64,000 bases of DNA from the sequence record NC_047776.2; one strand, given 5' to 3'. Positions 10,859 through 61,100 of the stretch are shown here, piece by piece. The stretch's first letter is position 1, and each line of letters begins with the position of its first letter. The DNA is from Escherichia phage ESCO5. Below the pieces are notes generated by a model. It saw only the letters and a program-made list of their open reading frames with translations. It did not search any database and was not told where the DNA came from. A program made the position numbers and the translations under genes.

Positions 10859-11818
10859 TTAGATTCCAATGATAGTTGCTGCTCGTTTATCCTTGGATCT
10901 GGTGTTTGCTCTACTACGTGACAAACCTCCGCAAGATTCACAACGAATGATATCGAAAGAACTTACCGCAGTGTGGTATTGTTTACCAGTAACAACGTGA
11001 ACGTGATCACTGCCACAACGAGAACAACGGACCTTCTCATCTGGGTAATAAGCGGATAAGTTAGGATGCTGTGGAATCCACGGAAGGATTTTCATATACA
11101 AATCACGGAGTGAAACAACATCACCGTCATTGTAAATCTGCATACGTTCAAAAGCATCACGATCACCTTCACAACATGCTTTCCATAAAGGGAACCCCTC
11201 GTTATCCAGTTTTTCACTTTCTGTTTCGAAATATGCTCCCATTTCTTTAAGGGAGTTGGAAGGAAGTGCAAATTGTTTCTTAGCTGCCTTCAATGTATCA
11301 ACAACTACATAATTAGAAGGAGGAGCCATATCGTGATATGCAAATCGTTGGTTAATGTATGCACGGTCAAACTTATACCCGTTGTGTGCCACAACTACAT
11401 CTGCCTCATTCAGAAGGTTCCAAAGATCTTGGCAAAGCTCCCAATCATCTGTATGATCAATATCAAAAAGAGGATAAGAAGACAAATTCTTACCTTCCAC
11501 TTCACCAGTATACAGATCAGCAGAAGAATAAGATAACAAATAACCTCTGCGAATTACCTGGTCTGGAGAAATGAAGGCTTTGAATCGACGGAAAGTATAT
11601 GCAATCTCTGGTGCAGTTTCAACATCAATAATTTTAATAACTGGTTGTTTCTTTTTAACTGGTTCTTGTTTACTTCCACTGAAACGTGCAAGGAAATCAT
11701 TCACTGTGCTTTTTCTTGTTGGGCTACCTAAAACAATTGCTGCAATATTGCGAGAAGACATACCCTCTGCACTCATACTAAGGATATCTGCTTTCTGCTC
11801 TTCTGTTAATCTGCTCAC
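10859..11818 (-). CDS. DnaQ-like 3'-5' exonuclease with N-terminal HTH and C-terminal zinc ribbon (putative)
   Basis: 319 aa; IIDVETAP (Exo I DxE) and VVVAHNGYKFD (Exo II HNGxxFD); C-terminal CSRCG...CESCGG. Confidence 0.5.
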   Translation of the reverse strand: MSRLTEEQKADILSMSAEGMSSRNIAAIVLGSPTRKSTVNDFLARFSGSKQEPVKKKQPVIKIIDVETAPEIAYTFRRFKAFISPDQVIRRGYLLSYSSADLYTGEVEGKNLSSYPLFDIDHTDDWELCQDLWNLLNEADVVVAHNGYKFDRAYINQRFAYHDMAPPSNYVVVDTLKAAKKQFALPSNSLKEMGAYFETESEKLDNEGFPLWKACCEGDRDAFERMQIYNDGDVVSLRDLYMKILPWIPQHPNLSAYYPDEKVRCSRCGSDHVHVVTGKQYHTAVSSFDIIRCESCGGLSRSRANTRSKDKRAATIIGI

Positions 11819-12933
11819 TCTGCCTCCTGTTGTGAGATGTATGACTGAAGCATACTCTCAAATGTTGTATCGTCATTATCCCAGCGTTTCATGTATACCA
11901 ACTGGAAAATTGTTTCTATCCATTCATCTGTTGTCATATGGACTTCTTCTCCATCCCAAGAAGTAAAATTAACACCATCTGGGAACCACGAGTAGTAAGT
12001 ATCTTTAACTGTTTGGAAAAGCTCTGCTTGAGTTTTACAAGCTGAAAGAAGATTAAAACAAGTAATATCTCCAAACTTAATATCAAAATCTTGATAGGGT
12101 CGGATACTATCTGTTTTATCTCCCATTAGCATCTGATATGCTAACCAGTAACTGCCCCAACCTTTAACTTCTTTCTTTTTACCTTTATCTACGATCCATA
12201 TATCGCCAATAGATTCATCAATAAGAATTATATCTGGATTTTTAAAGACTCCATCTTCTTTGTAGAAATTAAAAAGAATACTAGGAGTATGTAAACTATC
12301 TTTATCTATAGATACCACGATATAAGAAAATTTACCCGTCCTTTTATAATCTTTATAACCTTGGAAACCATATTTCTCTAACTCATCGTCAGCCTCTATT
12401 ACAGTAACAACATCACCATTGTGGAACTCCACAAGATAATCTTTGGTTTCTGAAAGCTGAAGTGGTTTGATATCTAATCGTTCAGACTTATATTCTACAG
12501 GCATTTTGAAGGCGTGTCTGAAAGTTTTTCCTACGCCAATAACTCCGCAATATTTTTCTAAACGCAGATGTTTTAGAATACCTAAGACTTTTGTTTTAGC
12601 TGCTTGGAAGGTGTGTCCGATATCTTCTGGCGGGTATTGCTTATCAATAATTTCGAACTCTTCCTTTGTGAAGGGACGTTTGTTTTTGGAGGCTCTTTCT
12701 GCATTTGTATCTCCTAGCCAACCTCCAATTTTAGTCTTACTTTTACCCCAAAACTCTGTCTTATTTTTAAATTCCTTTTGAGCACCTGAAGGGATGTGCT
12801 TCGCAATGATTGTTCTTTTCTCTAATGCAGACGCTGCTTGGAAAGCAATCTGATCATAATCAATTGCAGCTATTGTCTCTTCGTTGACATATAAATGAAG
12901 ATCTTCAGGTTTAATTAAAATATAACCGCTAAT
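11815..12933 (-). CDS. T4 RNase H / FEN-family 5'-3' exonuclease-like protein, start codon uncertain (no canonical start)
   Basis: ORF track gives 11815-12504, but the frame stays open for 147 more codons up to the TAA at 12946-12948 with no ATG/GTG/TTG. The extension reads like the FEN N-domain (GYILIKPED) and the body has a GDKTDSI motif like T4 RNase H GDKKDNV. Likely ATT start near 12933-12931 after AGGGGGAAA. Confidence 0.5.
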   Translation of the reverse strand: MSGYILIKPEDLHLYVNEETIAAIDYDQIAFQAASALEKRTIIAKHIPSGAQKEFKNKTEFWGKSKTKIGGWLGDTNAERASKNKRPFTKEEFEIIDKQYPPEDIGHTFQAAKTKVLGILKHLRLEKYCGVIGVGKTFRHAFKMPVEYKSERLDIKPLQLSETKDYLVEFHNGDVVTVIEADDELEKYGFQGYKDYKRTGKFSYIVVSIDKDSLHTPSILFNFYKEDGVFKNPDIILIDESIGDIWIVDKGKKKEVKGWGSYWLAYQMLMGDKTDSIRPYQDFDIKFGDITCFNLLSACKTQAELFQTVKDTYYSWFPDGVNFTSWDGEEVHMTTDEWIETIFQLVYMKRWDNDDTTFESMLQSYISQQEAE

Positions 12934-12945
12934 ATTTCCCCCTAA

Positions 12946-13155
12946 TTATTCATCGTCATCCTCTGTTGAGAATGTTTTAGTATACGGACATTGACGACTT
13001 TTCGGGATTGCTATAACTTCATCTTGGTTAGCGTTAGAATAGTAGCAATATTTTGTGTTGCCATTAACTTCAGAATTAGACAAGATTAAAGTAATTTGAC
13101 CTGCTGCTACTGTGAAACTAAAAGCTAAAAGAACAACTGTCAGAATCTTTTTCAT
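12946..13155 (-). CDS. small secreted or membrane-anchored protein (signal peptide)
   Basis: 69 aa; MKKILTVVLLAFSFTVAAGQ signal-like N-terminus; AGGAGG RBS. Confidence 0.45.
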   Translation of the reverse strand: MKKILTVVLLAFSFTVAAGQITLILSNSEVNGNTKYCYYSNANQDEVIAIPKSRQCPYTKTFSTEDDDE

Positions 13156-13165
13156 AACGCCTCCT

Positions 13166-13194
13166 AAAAAGCCTACCTCATTAAGTAGGTAGGC
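13166..13194 (-). terminator. rho-independent terminator
   Basis: Minus strand GCCTACCT...AGGTAGGC hairpin followed by TTTTT, between 13228 gene and 13155 start. Confidence 0.5.
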
Positions 13195-13227
13195 ATAATA
13201 TCATAACTAATCCCGCAAGTCAAGAAC

Positions 13228-24192: not shown

Positions 24193-24267
24193 GGCCCTGT
24201 AGCTCAATGGGAGAGCTGTCGGCTCATAACCGATAGGTAGCTGGATCGAAACCAGCCAGGGCCACCA
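24193..24267 (+). tRNA. tRNA with CAT anticodon (Met or Ile2)
   Basis: GGCCCTG acceptor pairs CAGGGCC; anticodon loop CTCATAA; encoded CCA. Confidence 0.7.
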
Positions 24268-24269
24268 AC

Positions 24270-24344
24270 GTCTTTATGGTGTAATGGATAGCACAGGAGT
24301 CTTCTAAACTCTTAGTCAAGGTTCGATTCCTTGTAAAGACACCA
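24270..24344 (+). tRNA. tRNA-Arg (TCT)
   Basis: Acceptor GTCTTTA/TAAAGAC; anticodon arm GGAGT-CTTCTAA-ACTCT; T-loop TTCGATT; CCA. Confidence 0.65.
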
Positions 24345-24540
24345 GAACATTTTAACATGAATTAGCTCAAGTGATTTGAACCCACTACTGATCATGGTGG
24401 CAGAGAATGAGGCAAGTATGTCAGACATTATAAACAAAGGCCACGGTTATATTAGAAGACATAAATGCTCGAAGAGCACCGTTCGTGGAGAACGGGGGTT
24501 GGTGGAGTCACCATTCATGGTAAAATGTTTTAAAAAACTA

Positions 24541-24569
24541 TTGACAACAAACATTATTTTATGTTAGAT
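24541..24569 (+). promoter_or_regulatory. sigma70-like promoter
   Basis: TTGACA, 17-nt spacer, TTAGAT; upstream of tRNA-Ser. Confidence 0.4.
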
Positions 24570-24578
24570 TATAAGTAT

Positions 24579-24669
24579 GGAAGGGCAAATCGACGTGGCG
24601 ACGAAAACGGTCTTGAAAACCGCCGAGCTTGAAAGAGCCTTGGGAGTTCGACTCTCCCTCCTTCCGCCA
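24579..24669 (+). tRNA. tRNA-Ser (TGA), type II
   Basis: Acceptor GGAAGGG/TCCTTCC, loop CTTGAAA, long variable arm; close to E. coli Ser(UGA) arms. Confidence 0.65.
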
Positions 24670-24674
24670 GATTA

Positions 24675-24760
24675 GGTAGATTGGTGAAATGGTAGCCACG
24701 ACAGTTTGCTAAACTGTAGTCGGAAACGGCGTGTAGGTTCGAGTCCTACATCTACCGCCA
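24675..24760 (+). tRNA. tRNA-Ser (GCT), type II
   Basis: Acceptor GGTAGAT/ATCTACC, anticodon loop TTGCTAA, long variable arm, CCA. Confidence 0.6.
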
Positions 24761-24890
24761 AGTTCTTTTTAATGTAGCTTACTTTAGCAGAGTAAATCTT
24801 CGGCAAGTGGCGGTAACCACTTTACCGATACCTCATAGTTAGTGGTGCGAACACTGGCTATTTTAAAAAGAATTTAAATATTAGTATTTA

Positions 24891-24978
24891 GGTGAGTTAA
24901 TTCCGTAGGGGTAGCGGGGCAGACTGTAAATCTGTTATCATTGCGATTCGGGTGGTTCGACTCCATCACTCACCACCA
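24891..24978 (+). tRNA. tRNA-Tyr (GTA), type II
   Basis: Acceptor GGTGAGT/ACTCACC, anticodon arm CAGA-CTGTAAA-TCTG, long variable arm, CCA. Confidence 0.6.
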
Positions 24979-24984
24979 AATTAA

Positions 24985-25070
24985 GATGAGTTGGCTGAAT
25001 GGTTTAAGCGGCGGACTGTTAATCCGTGTTCGAAAGAACAATATAGGTTCGAATCCTATACTCATCGCCA
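24985..25070 (+). tRNA. tRNA-Asn (GTT) with an unusually long variable arm
   Basis: Acceptor GATGAGT/ACTCATC, discriminator G; anticodon arm GCGGA-CTGTTAA-TCCGT matches E. coli tRNA-Asn; ~15-nt GTTCGAAAGAAC hairpin before T-arm; 86 nt. Confidence 0.5.
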
Positions 25071-25080
25071 GAATTATGGA

Positions 25081-25158
25081 CTTGTAGAGTTAAGGTAAAC
25101 CCCCAGTCGCCAATAGGCTTCTGGAATTGCAGGTATCGAATCCTGCCGAGTCCCAGCA
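25081..25158 (+). ncRNA. tRNA-like element, anticodon arm unresolved
   Basis: Acceptor GGACTTG/CGAGTCC and T-arm GCAGG-TATCGAAT-CCTGC present; central region does not fold into canonical D/anticodon arms by eye; no CCA. Confidence 0.3.
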
Positions 25159-25160
25159 TT

Positions 25161-25235
25161 GCTCCTATAGTATAATGGCTATTACAACGGTTTTGTAATC
25201 CGTGGATCTCTGTTCGATTCAGTGTGGGAGCACCA
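25161..25235 (+). tRNA. tRNA-Thr (TGT) (putative)
   Basis: Acceptor GCTCCTA/TGGGAGC, D-arm like E. coli Gly, anticodon loop TTTGTAA, CCA. Confidence 0.5.
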
Positions 25236-25508
25236 ACACAACATTAAGAGCACTGTGATTGATCGTCGTATCCTGTGCACAAGGTCTGCTCGAAAGACAG
25301 TGTTCTTAGTATTGTGTTGATCACAAAAAGAGTCACCCGAAACTTGACCGGAGTAGGGTTGGATGGGGCAAAATGAGAAGCGGCTCTCCCATCGACAGCA
25401 ACGAAGAATAATATTTGACTTTTGTTTTGTATTATTTTAAGTTAGCTTACCGAACGTAGGGCTAGTCACCCAACGGGATACTCGTCACTGTCCCACTCAA
25501 TAAAACTA

Positions 25509-25538
25509 TTGACAACCAATAGTAAAATGTAGTATAGT
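25509..25538 (+). promoter_or_regulatory. sigma70-like promoter
   Basis: TTGACA, 18-nt spacer, TATAGT; upstream of tRNA-Gly. Confidence 0.45.
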
Positions 25539-25549
25539 AAAGATGTAGG

Positions 25550-25623
25550 GCGTTCTTGGTGTAGCGGTAGCATTCCGTCCTTCCAAGTCGGCGGCACGAG
25601 TTCGATCCTCGTAGAACGCTCCA
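25550..25623 (+). tRNA. tRNA-Gly (TCC)
   Basis: Acceptor GCGTTCT/AGAACGC, anticodon loop CTTCCAA, T-loop TTCGATC, CCA. Confidence 0.6.
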
Positions 25624-25721
25624 AATTATTTAATAAAGGGTTGCCAGAAAACTTTCTCTTTTACTCATGGTTTTCTCCTTCTCTCACACTTCTTCTGGTT
25701 GCCCTTCATTAAATGATTTAT

Positions 25722-25797
25722 TGGTTTGTAGTGTAGTCCGGTAGCACACGACACTTTGACTGTCGTAGGTTTGGTTCAAATCCAGACAGACCAGCCA
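25722..25797 (+). tRNA. tRNA-Gln (TTG)
   Basis: T1-A72 start TGGTTTG/CAGACCA like E. coli Gln, anticodon arm CGACA-CTTTGAC-TGTCG, CCA. Confidence 0.65.
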
Positions 25798-25870
25798 TAT
25801 AACAAAGGTGAGTCACTACCTTAAGTGTGAAGTTAAAAACGAGGAGCCGCCGAACACTTTCTTTTGCGGT

Positions 25871-25947
25871 GTACCTTTAGAATGTTATCACGGGACGTAG
25901 CACAGCTTGGTAGTGCGCTCGCTTTGGGAGCGAGAGGTCGAGTGTTC
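25871..25947 (+). tRNA. tRNA-Pro (TGG)
   Basis: Acceptor CGGGACG/CGTCCCG, anticodon arm CTCGC-TTTGGGA-GCGAG, CCA. Confidence 0.7.
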
Positions 25948-25953
25948 GAATCA

Positions 25954-26027
25954 CTCCGTCCCGACCAATTAAATGTTTCGTAGTTCAATGGTAGAACCCA
26001 CGACTGATAATCGTGAGACACAAGTTC
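25954..26027 (+). tRNA. tRNA-Ile (GAT)
   Basis: Acceptor TGTTTCG/CGAAACA, anticodon arm CACGA-CTGATAA-TCGTG, CCA. Confidence 0.65.
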
Positions 26028-26028
26028 G

Positions 26029-26098
26029 ATTCTTGTCGAAACAACCAGTTTCCCGTTAGACTTACAGGATAAGAGATCCACAATTTATTGTGACGCTG
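26029..26098 (+). ncRNA. tRNA-like element, anticodon arm unresolved
   Basis: T-arm GCTGG-TTCGAAT-CCAGC and acceptor-like TCCCGT/ACGGGA; interior has a CACAAT-TT-ATTGTG hairpin instead of a 7-nt anticodon loop; no CCA. Confidence 0.3.
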
Positions 26099-26125
26099 GT
26101 TCGAATCCAGCACGGGATACATAAT

Positions 26126-26204
26126 AGCGGGATAGAGGAGTCTGGTCGTCCTCGCCAGTTTCATATGCTGGAGATCATTGGTTCAAATCCAATTCCCGCC
26201 TCCA
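26126..26204 (+). tRNA. second tRNA with CAT anticodon (Met or Ile2)
   Basis: Anticodon arm CCAGT-TTCATAT-GCTGG, T-loop TTCAAAT, 3' TCCCGCC-T-CCA; possible 1-72 A/C mismatch. Confidence 0.55.
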
Positions 26205-33579: not shown

Positions 33580-34581
33580 ATGCCAGCAGTAATTTTAGAT
33601 CAGGTTGTAGATTTCAGCCCTATGATCGAACTTCAGGATTCCCCTGATACACTGATTGCCAGCCTGAATCTGTTCAGCGTTGACTATCATTCAACTACCG
33701 CTATTGAAATCGGTAAAGAAAAAGCTGAAGATGCGCTGATCTCCGCTCGTGAGCGTGGTGGTGAGCGTAACTTCCTGACCATGAAAAATCCAGAACTGAA
33801 AGCGTTCCGTATTCCGTTCTTCCCTCTGGATAAAAACATCAAAGCTCAAGATATTCAATCTTTCCGTAGCTTTGCGATGGCAGGAATCAATGACTCTCTG
33901 CGCACAGACGCTGAAGTTGTTAACCGCTATATGTCCCAGATTCTGCGTGACGTAGCAAAAACCAAAGAGAAAATCTTTGCAGAAGCAGTTATGGGTCGTG
34001 CCTATAACGGCGTAGGTGGTGCAGCTAACTCTGCATACAACTGGTATACCGAGTGGAATGCTACCCAGAAATCTGTTGCTGTAGACTTTGCTTCTACCAC
34101 TGTTTCTCCAGCAGCCACTATCGAGCAAGAAGCTCGTGCTTACATCATCGATACTAAACAAGATGGCTCTACCGCTACTCGTATCGTAGCTCTGTGTTCT
34201 CGTGAATTTTTCGCATCTCTGGTTAACTCTCCATTTGTTCGCCAGGCATATCAGTATTTCCAAGGAACTCCTAACCTTCTGCGTGACCGCCTTAGCGGTA
34301 ACATGGATGTTCAGGTGTTCGAATGGAACGGTGTAACTTACATTGAAGATATCCACGGTAACATCCCTGCTGGTGAAGCATATGTTCTGCCTATGGGTAT
34401 CGAAGGTATGTTCCAGGCGCACTACGCTCCTGCGGATACTCCAGAACTGGCTAACACCCAGGCTCGTGAACTGTATACCTTCATGATCAGCCAGCACCGC
34501 ACCATTCAGCTTCAGTCTGAATTCTCGCTGCTCGCAGTTAACACCCGTCCAGAACTGGTAGTTAAACTGACTACGGCTTAA
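33580..34581 (+). CDS. major capsid protein (putative)
   Basis: 333 aa; position after scaffold; highly biased codon usage; followed by strong terminator. Confidence 0.55.
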   Translation: MPAVILDQVVDFSPMIELQDSPDTLIASLNLFSVDYHSTTAIEIGKEKAEDALISARERGGERNFLTMKNPELKAFRIPFFPLDKNIKAQDIQSFRSFAMAGINDSLRTDAEVVNRYMSQILRDVAKTKEKIFAEAVMGRAYNGVGGAANSAYNWYTEWNATQKSVAVDFASTTVSPAATIEQEARAYIIDTKQDGSTATRIVALCSREFFASLVNSPFVRQAYQYFQGTPNLLRDRLSGNMDVQVFEWNGVTYIEDIHGNIPAGEAYVLPMGIEGMFQAHYAPADTPELANTQARELYTFMISQHRTIQLQSEFSLLAVNTRPELVVKLTTA

Positions 34582-34602
34582 CAGAACTCTGTTAATATTA
34601 GA

Positions 34603-34636
34603 GGCTCGTCCGTGATGGGCGAGCCTTTTCTGTTTA
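34603..34636 (+). terminator. rho-independent terminator
   Basis: GGCTCG...CGAGCC hairpin followed by TTTTCTGTTT. Confidence 0.6.
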
Positions 34637-34665
34637 CAACAAGAGTTTACAATGAGGAGATTGAT

Positions 34666-35010
34666 ATGTCAAACCCAGAATTGAAACGTTACTTTAGTTA
34701 TCACGAAATGATTCGTGATTTCGAATCGCTTTCACCACTGATTGATGCTGATAAAACATTAGTATCTGCGCCACCAATGTCTTTCTATCTGAAAGATGGT
34801 CGTATTGCATTAGGTGGAAACTTCATTCACTTCCTCACACGTTTGAGAGAAGAAACAGGTATTCTTGTGCATCCTTTTGCAAGTGAAGAACACATGGGTT
34901 ACTATCTTGTAAGTTACGAAGATTATGCACCTGTAAAAATCAAAGAAGAAGTTTTAAAAGTAGAAGCGGTAGACACTCCAGCTAAAAAACGTTCCCTTCG
35001 TAAAAAATAA
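34666..35010 (+). CDS. hypothetical structural protein
   Basis: Internal ATG (MSNPELKRYF...) after GAGGAG; the track start 34612 lies inside the terminator hairpin. Confidence 0.4.
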   Translation: MSNPELKRYFSYHEMIRDFESLSPLIDADKTLVSAPPMSFYLKDGRIALGGNFIHFLTRLREETGILVHPFASEEHMGYYLVSYEDYAPVKIKEEVLKVEAVDTPAKKRSLRKK

Positions 35011-56237: not shown

Positions 56238-57299
56238 ATGGCGAAGCCAATATATTATCCTGACTGGGCTACACAAACTGTAACGCTCCCAGGAACTTTA
56301 AACACAAACAAAATTAGACCTAAAGAAACCATCCGCACAATTGGTATGGATTATGGTCAAATCATGACTTGCGAAGAAATGAACTGGATTCTTAATAATA
56401 TCGGTTTATGGATTCGCTATTTGGTGGATGACTTTCTTCCAACTTTACCTGATACTTACTTGCCTTTAATTGGAACTAAGATTACAATGGCAGGTGATGC
56501 TACTGGTGAGGCTACTTGGAATGGTAATAAAGAAGTTACTTTATCTATCCAAGTTCAAGATAATAGTCATAATCACTTGTCGGCAAACATTACAGATGCC
56601 ACTAGTTCAACAGTAACACCAAACGTGTTGGTAAAACGTGATGCAGGTGGTGCTATTTACGGTGGTGATATTTATGTTAATGGCACTTCCACAACAGATC
56701 CTGCAACACTGTTCTTCAAAAACTTTGCAGGACAAACGAATGGTGAGATTTCTGCCGAGTATCAAAGCGGAGGTCAGCTTTACATCTATCGTAGAAATCC
56801 TAGCACAGGTAGTGTATCGGCAGGTGTTCGTTTATATGATGCAGGTTATGTTCTAATAGATAATCCAAGATCAAACAGTGGACAAGACACTTCTAACGGA
56901 AATGCTTTAGTTCGTTTAGATTATCTGAACTCTCGTTTGACTTCCCTTCAGAATACATTGCAGACGAATATTAACACTGTTCAAAACAACTTGAATAATG
57001 TTAACAACAACCTCTCTTCTCGTATAAACAATGTAGAAAGTAATCATCAAAGTCAGATTACAAATAACTACAACTATGCTAACGGAACCTTTGTAAGAGA
57101 TATTCGTTATACTAGCCAAGGTGTGTATTATCCACCAGGGAACGAGGTTTCTTGGACTTATATCTGTTCTTCTGGTTATGTTCTTTCTGGTATTATCGTA
57201 CAGGAAACAGGACGTAGCTCTGCGGATAACATCGGTGGGGTTTACTTCAAACGCCTCCAGCGCAACGTTAACGGAAACTGGTACGATATTGGAGGCTAA
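56238..57299 (+). CDS. tail fibre protein (putative)
   Basis: 353 aa; Asn/Gln-rich coiled segment LQNTLQTNINTVQNNLNNVNNNLSSRINNVESN. Confidence 0.45.
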   Translation: MAKPIYYPDWATQTVTLPGTLNTNKIRPKETIRTIGMDYGQIMTCEEMNWILNNIGLWIRYLVDDFLPTLPDTYLPLIGTKITMAGDATGEATWNGNKEVTLSIQVQDNSHNHLSANITDATSSTVTPNVLVKRDAGGAIYGGDIYVNGTSTTDPATLFFKNFAGQTNGEISAEYQSGGQLYIYRRNPSTGSVSAGVRLYDAGYVLIDNPRSNSGQDTSNGNALVRLDYLNSRLTSLQNTLQTNINTVQNNLNNVNNNLSSRINNVESNHQSQITNNYNYANGTFVRDIRYTSQGVYYPPGNEVSWTYICSSGYVLSGIIVQETGRSSADNIGGVYFKRLQRNVNGNWYDIGG

Positions 57300-57845
57300 A
57301 TGATATTTACAAACTTTAAAAAATATATTCCTGAAGACCCTGAACTAAAAGAATTGGTAGAAGCAGAGAACATTCTTTTTCTTCGTTGCGATCAAGGTTA
57401 CGATTGGTATGATTTACGTAGCACAGAATTCAATAACGATAAAATGAAAGTCGTTTTTGATGATCAAAATCGTATTGTGTTTTGGAATACTGATCCTACA
57501 CTACTTTGCCCTGAAGATCTTTCTATAGCACAAGTAGACTTTAACATAGATACTTTTGAGGATATTAGGAACAAGGTTCTGGATTTAGAAACCTTAACTC
57601 TTAAGAATAAAGAGTATTCCCGTGAAGAGTTGATGACACAAGCTAGTGCAAAAATTCGCTCTTTACAAGAAACAGCGGTAGCACTTATAACACCTTTACA
57701 GTATGCTAAAGATTTAGAAATGGCTACTGAAGACGAATTAGCTTATCTTAAAAATCTTCAAGTTTATGTAGTTAAACTAAATCGTGTTCCGCTTCAAAAA
57801 GACTATCCTTACGCTATAGATTGGCCTACATTACCGACAGAATAA
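57300..57845 (+). CDS. tail fibre assembly protein (putative)
   Basis: 181 aa; start overlaps previous stop. Confidence 0.35.
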   Translation: MIFTNFKKYIPEDPELKELVEAENILFLRCDQGYDWYDLRSTEFNNDKMKVVFDDQNRIVFWNTDPTLLCPEDLSIAQVDFNIDTFEDIRNKVLDLETLTLKNKEYSREELMTQASAKIRSLQETAVALITPLQYAKDLEMATEDELAYLKNLQVYVVKLNRVPLQKDYPYAIDWPTLPTE

Positions 57846-58193: not shown

Positions 58194-61100
58194 ATGGCAA
58201 CATTCCCAACATATCCAGCAACGTCTCTCGAACAGGGCGTAGACCTGGTTATTTTCTCATCTAACCAACTCCATGATGTTATTAATGGAAGTGCTACAGA
58301 GAGTATTGAAACAGAATCAGGGTTGATACCAACCCTGAGAAAATCCCTTGTTGACAACTTTTTCTTTAAAAGCCCATTGGATTGGGCGCAAGGCACAAAC
58401 GAAACAGTTTTTAACCAACTACGTTATTTTCAGAATGGGGTATTGAGCGGTTATTATTATGCTCCTAATGCTACATTGGTAAACCCAATTCCTATGCAAG
58501 GGACTCCAGTAGGAGATAACAACTGGGTATTGTGGGGACTGAAGACAGAACAACTAGCAACAGAAGTCACCCCTTGGGTATATTCTGGTGCAACTGGTTA
58601 TGAAACAGTAATCAGTCCTCCCTACATCTTTGATAGTGCTATTGTTACAATCAATGGTGTTATTCAGGTTCTGGGAGAAGCTTTCCGCATAGAAGATAGT
58701 AAAATCATTTTATCTGAACCTTTGGGACATGATCCTGCAACAGGACTGCCAAACAAGCTTTTTGCCTATATTGGTAAAATCGTAGCTTCCGCAGATACAG
58801 ATCCTAACTTAGAAAACCGTCTTGTCAGTTTAGAAACAAAAACTGAAGAACTGACAGAAAACATGGATAAAGTACCTTTACAAACTATTGCTCGTAAATA
58901 CGGTTTGTTGGATGACGAAGTAGCTTACGCAACAGCGGGTCAATCATTAACAGGGATTAAAGCTCTGTATGATCCGGTAGCACAATCTTCCTACACATTG
59001 CCTCCTAACATCACAGGGACTTTAACATCTTTGTCTGTTTCTGGAGTAATGACTTATTCTGGCGGATCTGTAGATCTTTCTGCATTAGCTGTTGAACGTG
59101 GACAGTTTGTTCATTTGCCTACAAGCTTTGGTAATAATGTAACTCTGACAGCTAAAAATCAGACGATTGGGCGTGGCGCTGGTCGCTATCGTTGGGCGGG
59201 AAGTTTACCAAAAAGTATTTTAGCTTCTGATACATTGGAAACAAGTGGTGGATTAGGTCCAAATGCATGGGTTCTAACTAATACAGAAGGACTGTTAACC
59301 CCTCGTGGTGGAACATACAACGATTTATTCGATGTTGTCCGCTTATCAGAATTTGCTAACAATACAACTACCTATACCACACCAGAAGCAGCTTTCCAGG
59401 CGGCACTGTTAGCAGCAAAAGCTTCGAAAAGTAAGATTCTCGACGCTTACGGTTGTGATATGACTTTCACGACAAGCTCTTTTGATATTCAAGATATCAC
59501 TTTGCGTGGGGGTGTGTTCCGTGGTCAACGCGATTATCGTGTGCAAAATGCTACAGTAGAAGGCACAACTTTCCGTAACTCTCGTGTTATGTATTGGGGT
59601 GGTGCTGTGCGCATGTTCGATTGTTTGTGGGACGGTGCTCCTCGCGCAGGTCAAGTTGGTAGCTTGGTATTCCAAGGAAACCCAATATCAGGTACTTTTG
59701 AAATTGATAATTGTACTTTTAAAAACGGGTTATATGGCATCCTTCAACAAGGAACAGGGGAACCAGTAACACGCGGTGTCTTCCGTAACCTTACCTTCAT
59801 GGACATGCAAGGTGATGCAATAGAACTGAACGTCATCAATAAACATTATGATGATGGTTGTGTGATTGAGAATATTTACCTGTCTAATATTGATGGGACT
59901 AACGCTCCTATTCCTCTGTCCAACTGGGGTATCGGTATTGGTGTGGCTGGTAAAGGACCATATGGTTACGGAATTCCTGATGATCAATATTGCAAGAATA
60001 TTACAATTCGTAACGTTTTTGCAAAACGTTGTCGTCAGATTGTCCACGTAGAAGTTGGTCGTAATATTTCTATCGAAAACATTCATGGCGATCCAGATCA
60101 AACTGTATCTGTTGGGACAGGTTTGGCAACTGGCGCAGTTGTAATGTATGGAAGTAAAGATTTTACGATTGATGGTGTTTACGGAGAGCCTAAAACAGAC
60201 GGTAGCACACTTGCAAGTAATATCCGTATGATTTATTTGGAGTGGGGAACTAACGCAGTTCTGGATGAAGAGGGCAATCCGGTAGTTCCGGCACAGGGCA
60301 GACCTTCAAACCCATGCTTTAACTATTCTGTTCGTAACATTCACACCAAAACTGGGCGTGTTTTTGCAGGAGTTTCCGCTGGGCCAGGTTATGAAAACAG
60401 AGTCAGCTTTGAGAATATCCATTGTGCTGCGTTGCAGTTGTTCGGTGTAGCTTCTTGGCTTTCAATGTCTAACATCACCTGTAATATCTTTGATTGTGTT
60501 GGTCAACCTGAATCTGGTCCAGGGACATTTTATGATGGATTCTTCCGTAGAGAAAAATCTGTTCTTGAGATGGTTAACGTAAACTGTTACCCAGATGGCA
60601 AGACTATGGTTACTGGTCGCCCACAGTGGAGCCGTTGCCGTTACTCTGATATTCATCGTGTCAACTGTAATGTTGAAGCTAATATGTATACCAATATCGC
60701 AGGTGGTATTGGAGCTATTGTAGGGACAACTGGCAAAGTTTATTACTTAGAGCCTAACCCTAGCCGAAACATTGATGGGATGCATTTCCCAACAGGGAAG
60801 GAGTTTGACAAAGGGGATATGATAGTCAAAGCGGATAATACGTTCTTCCTTGTAACAACAAGTGGGGCATACATTCCAGATATCCCAGCTTTCGGTATTC
60901 GAGCTACACAAGCAGGAGATACCTTCCTGACACAGAACTTGACTCCTAATGGGACAGCAACAAACGCTTCTTGGTTGTATCACTATCCTCTGTCAGCAGG
61001 AACACGTATCCGTATTCCTGGTGCTGGTGTAGGTGGAGCAGATTTGGACACAGTTATTACTCGTGCACCTTATCAAGATAATGATACGTGGACTAACCCA

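Follow-up and report, generated by a model that had tools for sequence, protein, structure and literature searches.

The nuclease locus and its predicted product

The DNA stretch of Escherichia phage ESCO5 analyzed here (sequence record NC_047776.2; 64,000 nucleotides (nt), called the window throughout) carries on its minus strand a coding sequence (CDS) for a full-length FEN-type 5'–3' exonuclease, which at 11815–12933 comprises 372 codons plus a TGA and for which an ATT start is proposed. Upstream of it lies an open reading frame (ORF) of 69 amino acids (aa) with a signal peptide and an acidic C-terminus (12946–13155, minus strand), whose TAA at 12948–12946 is found 12 nt before the ATT at 12933. 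The sequence-only reading of this DNA had held that the nuclease frame continues from this TAA without any ATG, GTG, or TTG, and machine translation together with the ORF list bears this out: 147 sense codons (12945–12505) separate the TAA from the first canonical start in frame, the ATG at 12504, which opens a 229-aa ORF that ends at 11815. The hand translation and the coordinates of that reading are likewise correct by computer translation.

The proposed initiation codon at 12931–12933 (AUU on the RNA level) is expected to be decoded as formylmethionine (fMet). It is the first near-cognate codon past a Shine-Dalgarno (SD)-like AGGGGGA at 12937–12943, 4 nt upstream of the ATT—with AGGGGG at 12943–12938 and the G-run at 12942–12938—and the record of phage ESCO13 annotates a ribosome-binding site (RBS) at this place. 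The N-terminal 142 codons that follow (12505–12930) are left out of most annotations. As judged from alignments and from their substitution pattern, they belong to the gene and include the invariant Asp25 (codon 12861–12859) and Asp27 (codon 12855–12853). The internal ATG at 12502–12504 (Met144), used as start in most annotations, is not regarded as the real start, given that it has no SD and that the residue is not conserved.

Of all stop-to-stop ORFs in the window that span at least 120 codons (65 in number), this one has the longest start-less leader. With the window's own codon usage, in which ATG, GTG, and TTG add up to 4.4%, a run of 147 codons free of all three is expected with P ~0.0013. 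GTG and TTG do occur within the leader of relatives, and their total absence is specific to the lineage of the window. The three next-longest start-less leaders were considered as genes and rejected: they belong to minus-strand ORFs at 33691–34668, 56916–57344, and 59730–60305—one of them without any ATG—which lie antisense to the genes of the major head protein, of a gpH-domain protein, and of a colanic-acid-degrading tail protein and are shadows of these.

A sequencing error, which had been named as a possible cause of the missing start, is excluded because identical junctions recur across many records. The window is that of a Phapecoctavirus and in this region matches Escherichia phage vB_EcoM_REC at 100% identity and 62 other Phapecoctavirus records at 95–99.4%. 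Of 63 Phapecoctavirus records, which stem from many laboratories, 53 share one and the same 51-nt stretch over the TAA–ATT junction, and the sister genus Justusliebigvirus bears its own ATT junction, identical in 49 records; in total, more than 100 isolates have identical ATT junctions. The G-run of the SD varies within this set, with G5 in the window and phAPEC8, G6 in ETEC-TG and PNJ1809-36, and G7 in BI-EHEC (L106, L107, and L109 among the loci read), which might reflect either real variation in SD length or homopolymer sequencing error. These indels between TAA and ATT shift the upstream frame and leave the ATT and the nuclease ORF unchanged.

The 372-aa product has no match in Pfam at E ≤ 0.01, and sequence and profile searches against the PDB gave nothing meaningful. 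PHROG 107 ("exonuclease") covers its residues 10–367, and among 30 diverse homologues 10 match PF02739 (the 5'–3' exonuclease N-domain) weakly and one matches PF01367. An AlphaFold model calculated from a 30-sequence alignment (predicted local distance difference test, pLDDT, 95.1; predicted template modeling score, pTM, 0.88) has a PIN-like α/β nuclease fold, and the 13 best Foldseek matches in the PDB are all FEN-family nucleases. D25, E180/D182/D183, D210/D212, and D272/D275 are invariant in the 30 diverse and in 16 clade sequences and follow the carboxylate order of the FEN superfamily (N-terminal D, E-x-D-D, D-x-D, D-x-x-D). Apart from D25, these residues lie in three motifs found in both alignments: E180-A-D182-D183 (12385–12396), D210-K211-D212 (12298–12306), and G271-D272-x-x-D275 (12109–12120), the last being of the type seen in the helix-3-turn-helix region. 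The same order of carboxylate motifs is known from T5 FEN. By motif order and without residue-level superposition, we take the four groups to correspond to T5 FEN D26, E128/D130, D153/D155, and D201/D204, whereby E180/D182 would presumably match the metal site formed by E128/D130.

In structural alignments, the protein shares 12–21% identity with T5 D15, T4 RNase H, Escherichia coli ExoIX, and mycobacterial FenA. Unlike these, it bears additional strands and helices at residues 38–137, between the first Asp motif and the YK/EADD motifs, and it is ~80–130 residues longer than the matched T5, T4 RNase H, and ExoIX chains (239–283 residues). Judged by its modeled fold, the protein is a divergent FEN branch that is not recognized by the curated sequence models PF02739 and PF01367. 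The earlier proposal that the extension forms the N-terminal part of a FEN/RNase H-type nuclease is thereby confirmed—by a high-confidence model, by fold searches, and by Asp25, which is invariant. Since this residue and the initial strands of the fold fall within the extension, the annotated 229-aa product would be catalytically incomplete. In the reading preferred here, the gene at 12933–11815 (minus strand) is intact and its 372-aa product is a FEN-family 5'–3' exonuclease/flap endonuclease of predicted activity.

Proposed start codons across the clade

For this lytic phage lineage, homologous loci were taken from phage records, IMG/VR, Logan/ENA contigs, and JGI metagenomes, and each junction was read in the protein frame. 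The clade—delimited by at least 50% protein identity to the window—comprises the Stephanstirmvirinae and uncultured relatives and yields 28 distinct junction sequences. The start position is occupied by ATT in 10 of these, by ATC in 10, by ATA in six, and by CTG in two, and none of the 28 has an ATG, GTG, or TTG at this position or in frame upstream of it. It lies 22–24 codons ahead of an invariant IDYD motif in every junction and always follows an SD core at a distance of 3–5 nt, which reads GGAGG, GGGGG, or AGGAG and only in one case TAGGA. In many relatives, the stop codon TAG is itself part of the SD (TAGGAGG). The open frame mostly begins 0–5 codons before the near-cognate codon (10 and 13 codons in two junctions), and in four loci (L014, L121, L122, and L124) an in-frame TAA directly adjoins the ATC, so that the frame opens exactly at the proposed start. 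In a neighbor-joining tree analyzed by Fitch parsimony, the ancestral codon is ATT, and no fewer than nine switches between codons are needed.

Differences within the N-terminal 142 codons are biased toward third positions, with 39–55 synonymous versus 35–67 nonsynonymous changes per comparison, and no frame disruption was found in this region among relatives down to 50% identity. This pattern indicates that the region evolves as coding sequence under purifying selection.

Translation very probably starts at the ATT at 12933–12931, 4 nt after AGGGGG, as a near-cognate codon read by the initiator fMet-tRNA. This is the codon that the sequence-only reading had singled out as best candidate (ATT at ~12933 after AGGGGGAAA), and its choice gains weight from a near-cognate codon standing behind an SD at the same place in every clade relative as well as from the ESCO13 records, where this start is annotated. 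A comparable situation is found in E. coli infC (encoding IF3) and pcnB, where a near-cognate AUU behind an SD site is the sole start of an intact gene: here, too, no canonical start is present from the upstream stop to the required part of the protein, and the SD-spaced near-cognate codon is conserved in 28 of 28 junctions.

Some points weigh against this assignment. The start is assigned by sequence comparison alone, and the SD-to-start spacing of 4 nt is at the short end of the range that works well. ATT, ATC, and ATA are all isoleucine codons, and their conservation alone could mean a conserved isoleucine—a reading that is argued against by the stops immediately upstream and by the CTG lineages. 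Since CUG occurs too, the comparison points to near-cognacy to AUG, and not to an isoleucine codon, as the shared property of these start codons. Finally, three loci (L112–L114) also hold an in-frame ATG nine codons downstream, which could serve as start there. These ENA/Logan contigs (53–57% identity) keep the SD and an ATT or ATA start, and gene callers choose the downstream ATG. The upstream near-cognate start is probably still used in them, as the nine residues between the two codons are conserved as protein (consensus I[ST]xxFxTIS).

For more distant homologues, SD-proximal starts were read manually and form a gradient, from TTG in rV5-like phages through a mixture of ATG, GTG, and TTG in other Vequintavirinae-like phages to almost only ATG in remote relatives. 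In the rV5-like Vequintavirinae homologues (L008, which is Escherichia phage V18, L056–L058, and L062), the TTG is located 3–4 nt past a GGAGG-like SD.

Alternative readings and the proposed weak initiation

Another in-frame noncanonical codon slightly downstream, for example the ATT at 12921–12919 or that at 12915–12913, has a slim chance of being the start. Both codons are present in the frame of the window, the first 4–7 residues are dispensable for reaching the first modeled strand, and PHROG and tblastn matches to distant relatives start at residues 4–10. However, these codons lie 16–22 nt from the SD and are not near-cognate in all relatives—L015 and L016 read AGT AAA TTT GAA ACA after the start—whereas the codon at 3–5 nt from the SD is the only one that is near-cognate in all 28 junctions. 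It is highly improbable that the gene is damaged at its 5' end, as had been considered, and that only the 229-aa C-terminal fragment from ATG 12504, or nothing at all, is made. Such a reading agrees with 57 of the 59 annotated Phapecoctavirus records listed, where the annotation is confined to the 229-aa ORF or the N-terminal region carries none. Yet both the invariant Asp25 and the β-strands that open the fold would be missing from the fragment, no SD precedes its ATG, and Met144 is a leucine in nine of 15 aligned clade relatives, which also contradicts the idea that homologues normally begin at this methionine. Neither frame disruption nor relaxed constraint was found in the start-less region: down to lineages of 50% identity, the frame is unbroken and subject to purifying selection, with synonymous changes in abundance. 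This conservation and the coding-type substitution pattern effectively exclude a pseudogene.

Readthrough or suppression of the TAA at 12948–12946, by which the nuclease would be fused to the 69-aa signal-peptide protein, had been put forward as well and is practically out of the question. The two ORFs are indeed in frame across a single TAA in the window, and a protein cluster of 444-aa "fusions" (P0005) exists in a public protein collection. But the ORFs are out of frame in alia and phiWec181, the frame is shifted in the G6 and G7 variants of the genus, and a double stop is present in several relatives, either as TAA TAG or as TAG plus a TAA that comes two codons later and adjoins the start. 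Functionally, a replication nuclease with a signal peptide would make no sense either. A conserved in-frame ORF pair across a single leaky stop is not what the relatives hold, and by this comparison the in-frame relation to the 69-aa ORF is a coincidence of the lineage of the window. Cluster P0005 (48 members) was rejected as natural support for readthrough, being a gene-caller artefact: the false fusion of small ORF and nuclease was seen on L025 1501–2835 (Logan SRR30397360 contig), where the DNA has a TAG that the gene caller translated as Gln. Apparently, the gene caller chose a recoded genetic code since the nuclease ORF offers no canonical start.

With initiation at ATT 12933 as the preferred reading, a mechanism can be outlined. 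The initiator fMet-tRNA would pair with AUU under a third-position mismatch, for which the strong SD might partly compensate. Ribosomes that terminate at the TAA of the small ORF, 12 nt upstream, might be reloaded at the ATT site. The weak start codon would keep the nuclease low, at a level that would depend on IF3 and on cell physiology. In E. coli, AUA, AUC, AUU, and CUG initiate at ~1–2% of AUG, and infC and pcnB are the only confirmed AUU starts (bioRxiv 10.1101/063800); the four start codons of the clade are exactly this 1–2% class. IF3 impedes AUU and AUA starts (PMC9723500), and non-AUG starts are sensitive to temperature, nutrients, and guanosine tetraphosphate (ppGpp) (PMC5499595). 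By analogy, the nuclease level set by this start codon is most likely low and IF3-sensitive, and coupling to the upstream ORF is possible. Such coupling is not universal, as two lineages have a different upstream gene—a further point on the negative side.

The low, IF3-sensitive output that may be expected here would again resemble infC and pcnB. Unlike infC, which is autoregulatory and whose product is itself the discriminator, nothing of this kind applies to the nuclease; and unlike both E. coli genes, the nuclease is phage-encoded, its start is proposed from sequence comparison, and its codon drifts among four near-cognates over a virus clade. The GTC start of Streptomyces sigR provides another noncanonical start, which is repressed by IF3, serves as an IF3-dependent translational control point (PMC5472188), and is experimentally proven; it differs from the present case in codon, organism, and type of gene.

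The clade keeps a weak start while the codon drifts between AUU, AUC, AUA, and CUG, which argues that weakness itself and not a particular codon is selected. Dosage control as in infC would be a reasonable explanation and fits this evolutionary pattern. Two more points fit selection for weak initiation: the gradient of starts in distant homologues and the GTG with which the downstream exonuclease gene starts within a GTGA overlap. The weak start might also be real and carry no regulatory meaning, as a tolerated, nearly neutral state inherited by a gene of which very little product is needed. This is unlikely, if by no means negligible. The weak start could descend from one ancestor, and RNA structure that would enforce coupling or regulation was not found at the junction, where the minimum free energy is no better than that of shuffled sequences (z = 0.05). 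Moreover, the absence of ATG over ~9 switches is only modestly significant when taken alone (~(2/3)^7, P ~0.06, in a naive neutral model). On the other side, the trait lasts through 28 haplotypes and at least nine codon switches that never led to ATG, GTG, or TTG, a strong SD is kept beside the weak start, and in the sister clades, weak TTG and GTG starts are likewise overrepresented. Selection on prokaryotic start codons elsewhere acts in favor of AUG (PMC5622118).

A more far-reaching and rather doubtful idea is that the near-cognate start acts as a sensor or timer, tying the output of the flap nuclease to the initiation-fidelity state of the host. It is prompted by the discrimination of IF3 against AUU and AUA and by the response of non-AUG starts to ppGpp and nutrient state. 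Expression would then rise as the IF3-to-ribosome ratio falls during infection; alternatively, a phage factor or a phage tRNA(CAU) might relax start-codon discrimination. If this held true, the sister clade would follow the same strategy in attenuated form with its TTG and GTG starts.

The window encodes a cluster of 10 tRNA genes (24193–26204, plus strand), two of them with anticodon CAT. The tRNA at 26126–26204 has an A1xC72 mismatch atop its acceptor stem and lacks the three G-C pairs of the initiator anticodon stem (GGG/CCC); a lysidine-type tRNA-Ile2 and an odd tRNA-Met are both conceivable. A phage tRNA(CAT) as special initiator was considered and rejected: the tRNA with the mismatch has no GGG/CCC anticodon stem, CUG occurs as start too, and near-cognate pairing of the ordinary fMet-tRNA is simpler.

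Gene neighborhood, annotation, and significance

The nuclease gene is surrounded by genes for an RdgC-like protein, a DNA ligase, a nucleotide pyrophosphohydrolase (named after the ESCO13 and EF1-1 records), and a DnaQ-like exonuclease, with which it forms a phage replication/recombination module. The 69-aa ORF belongs to PHROG 4641, whose function is unknown, and is syntenic in most clade members; in the phi92 record, a SignalP signal peptide is assigned to the homologue gp086. Downstream, the GTG at 11816–11818 (minus strand) starts a 319-aa 3'–5' exonuclease with helix-turn-helix and RNase_H_2 (DnaQ-like) domains, as assigned from the sequence, the ORF list, and a domain search. This GTG overlaps the stop codon of the FEN gene as GTGA, which suggests coupled translation along the operon; owing to this overlap, translation of the 3'–5' exonuclease may be partly slaved to that of the FEN.

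Ahead of the small ORF, a consensus scan detected a promoter-like TTGACT-17-TATTAT with an upstream TG, which is followed by a GC-rich hairpin and a T-run (13171–13223, minus strand). Past the T-run, an SD AGGAGG is located at 13165–13160 and then the ATG of the small ORF at 13155. A terminator and a promoter possibly overlap in this segment, which separates the rdgC-like gene from the operon formed by the small ORF, the FEN gene, and the exonuclease gene and could mark a transcript boundary for these three genes.

The ATT start has entered the databases once. ESCO13 gp105 (YP_009786567.1; KX552041.2/NC_047770.1), a "putative exonuclease", is the same gene at 98.8% nucleotide identity over a 1.6-kb region and is annotated—by annotation only—as a 372-aa CDS from the same ATT, with an RBS feature. 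The ESCO13 genome paper makes no mention of the start codon, and no paper describing it was found in the literature on ESCO13 and phAPEC8, on phage ATT starts, or on noncanonical starts of phage exonucleases; nor did these searches turn up proteomic or Ribo-seq data on the phages concerned. Among the 59 annotated Phapecoctavirus records listed, only those of ESCO13 (GenBank and RefSeq) annotate the gene correctly; the N-terminal region is unannotated or misannotated in the remaining 57. Every other annotated record examined, including those of alia, phi92, and phiWec181, truncates the gene or leaves the region empty. Alia and phi92 are annotated from an internal GTG—with the remark "No RBS identified; weak Prodigal statistics" by the phi92 annotators—and phiWec181 from an internal TTG; in the RefSeq record of V18, the TTG-initiated homologue is truncated to an internal ATG ~50 codons downstream. 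In phAPEC8 and BI-EHEC, a 40-aa out-of-frame ORF is inserted as a hypothetical protein (12582–12704, minus strand, in window coordinates), which is almost certainly a spurious filler, and Klebsiella phage phi1_175008 has two antisense ORFs annotated in the N-terminal region of the nuclease.

Some host labels among the records look doubtful: the "Campylobacter phages" B15, C3, A150, A145, and A110a (MG065650, MG065656, MG065639, and others) and the "Acinetobacter phage vB_AbaM_ABPW7" (OP562383) are 98–100% identical in this region to Phapecoctavirus or Justusliebigvirus phages of E. coli.

Near-cognate initiation is a known mechanism, and the ATT start is already present in the ESCO13 records. 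What is new here is the clade-wide near-cognate pattern in 28 of 28 junctions with at least nine switches, the rejection of readthrough, and a rule for annotation: a near-cognate codon 4 nt after GGAGG and 22–24 codons before the IDYD motif. Most records reduce the gene to a catalytically incomplete fragment, some add spurious ORFs, and one gene caller even invoked TAG recoding; the rule would mend the annotation over a phage subfamily that is used in therapy research, and a widespread annotation error would be corrected. Beyond this, the locus would offer a clean natural example of a whole virus clade in which the gene of a replication nuclease keeps a start codon of ~1% efficiency—as judged from its E. 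coli class—and the identity of this codon drifts. If true, this would be a neat, in principle not surprising case of selection on the weakness of a start codon.

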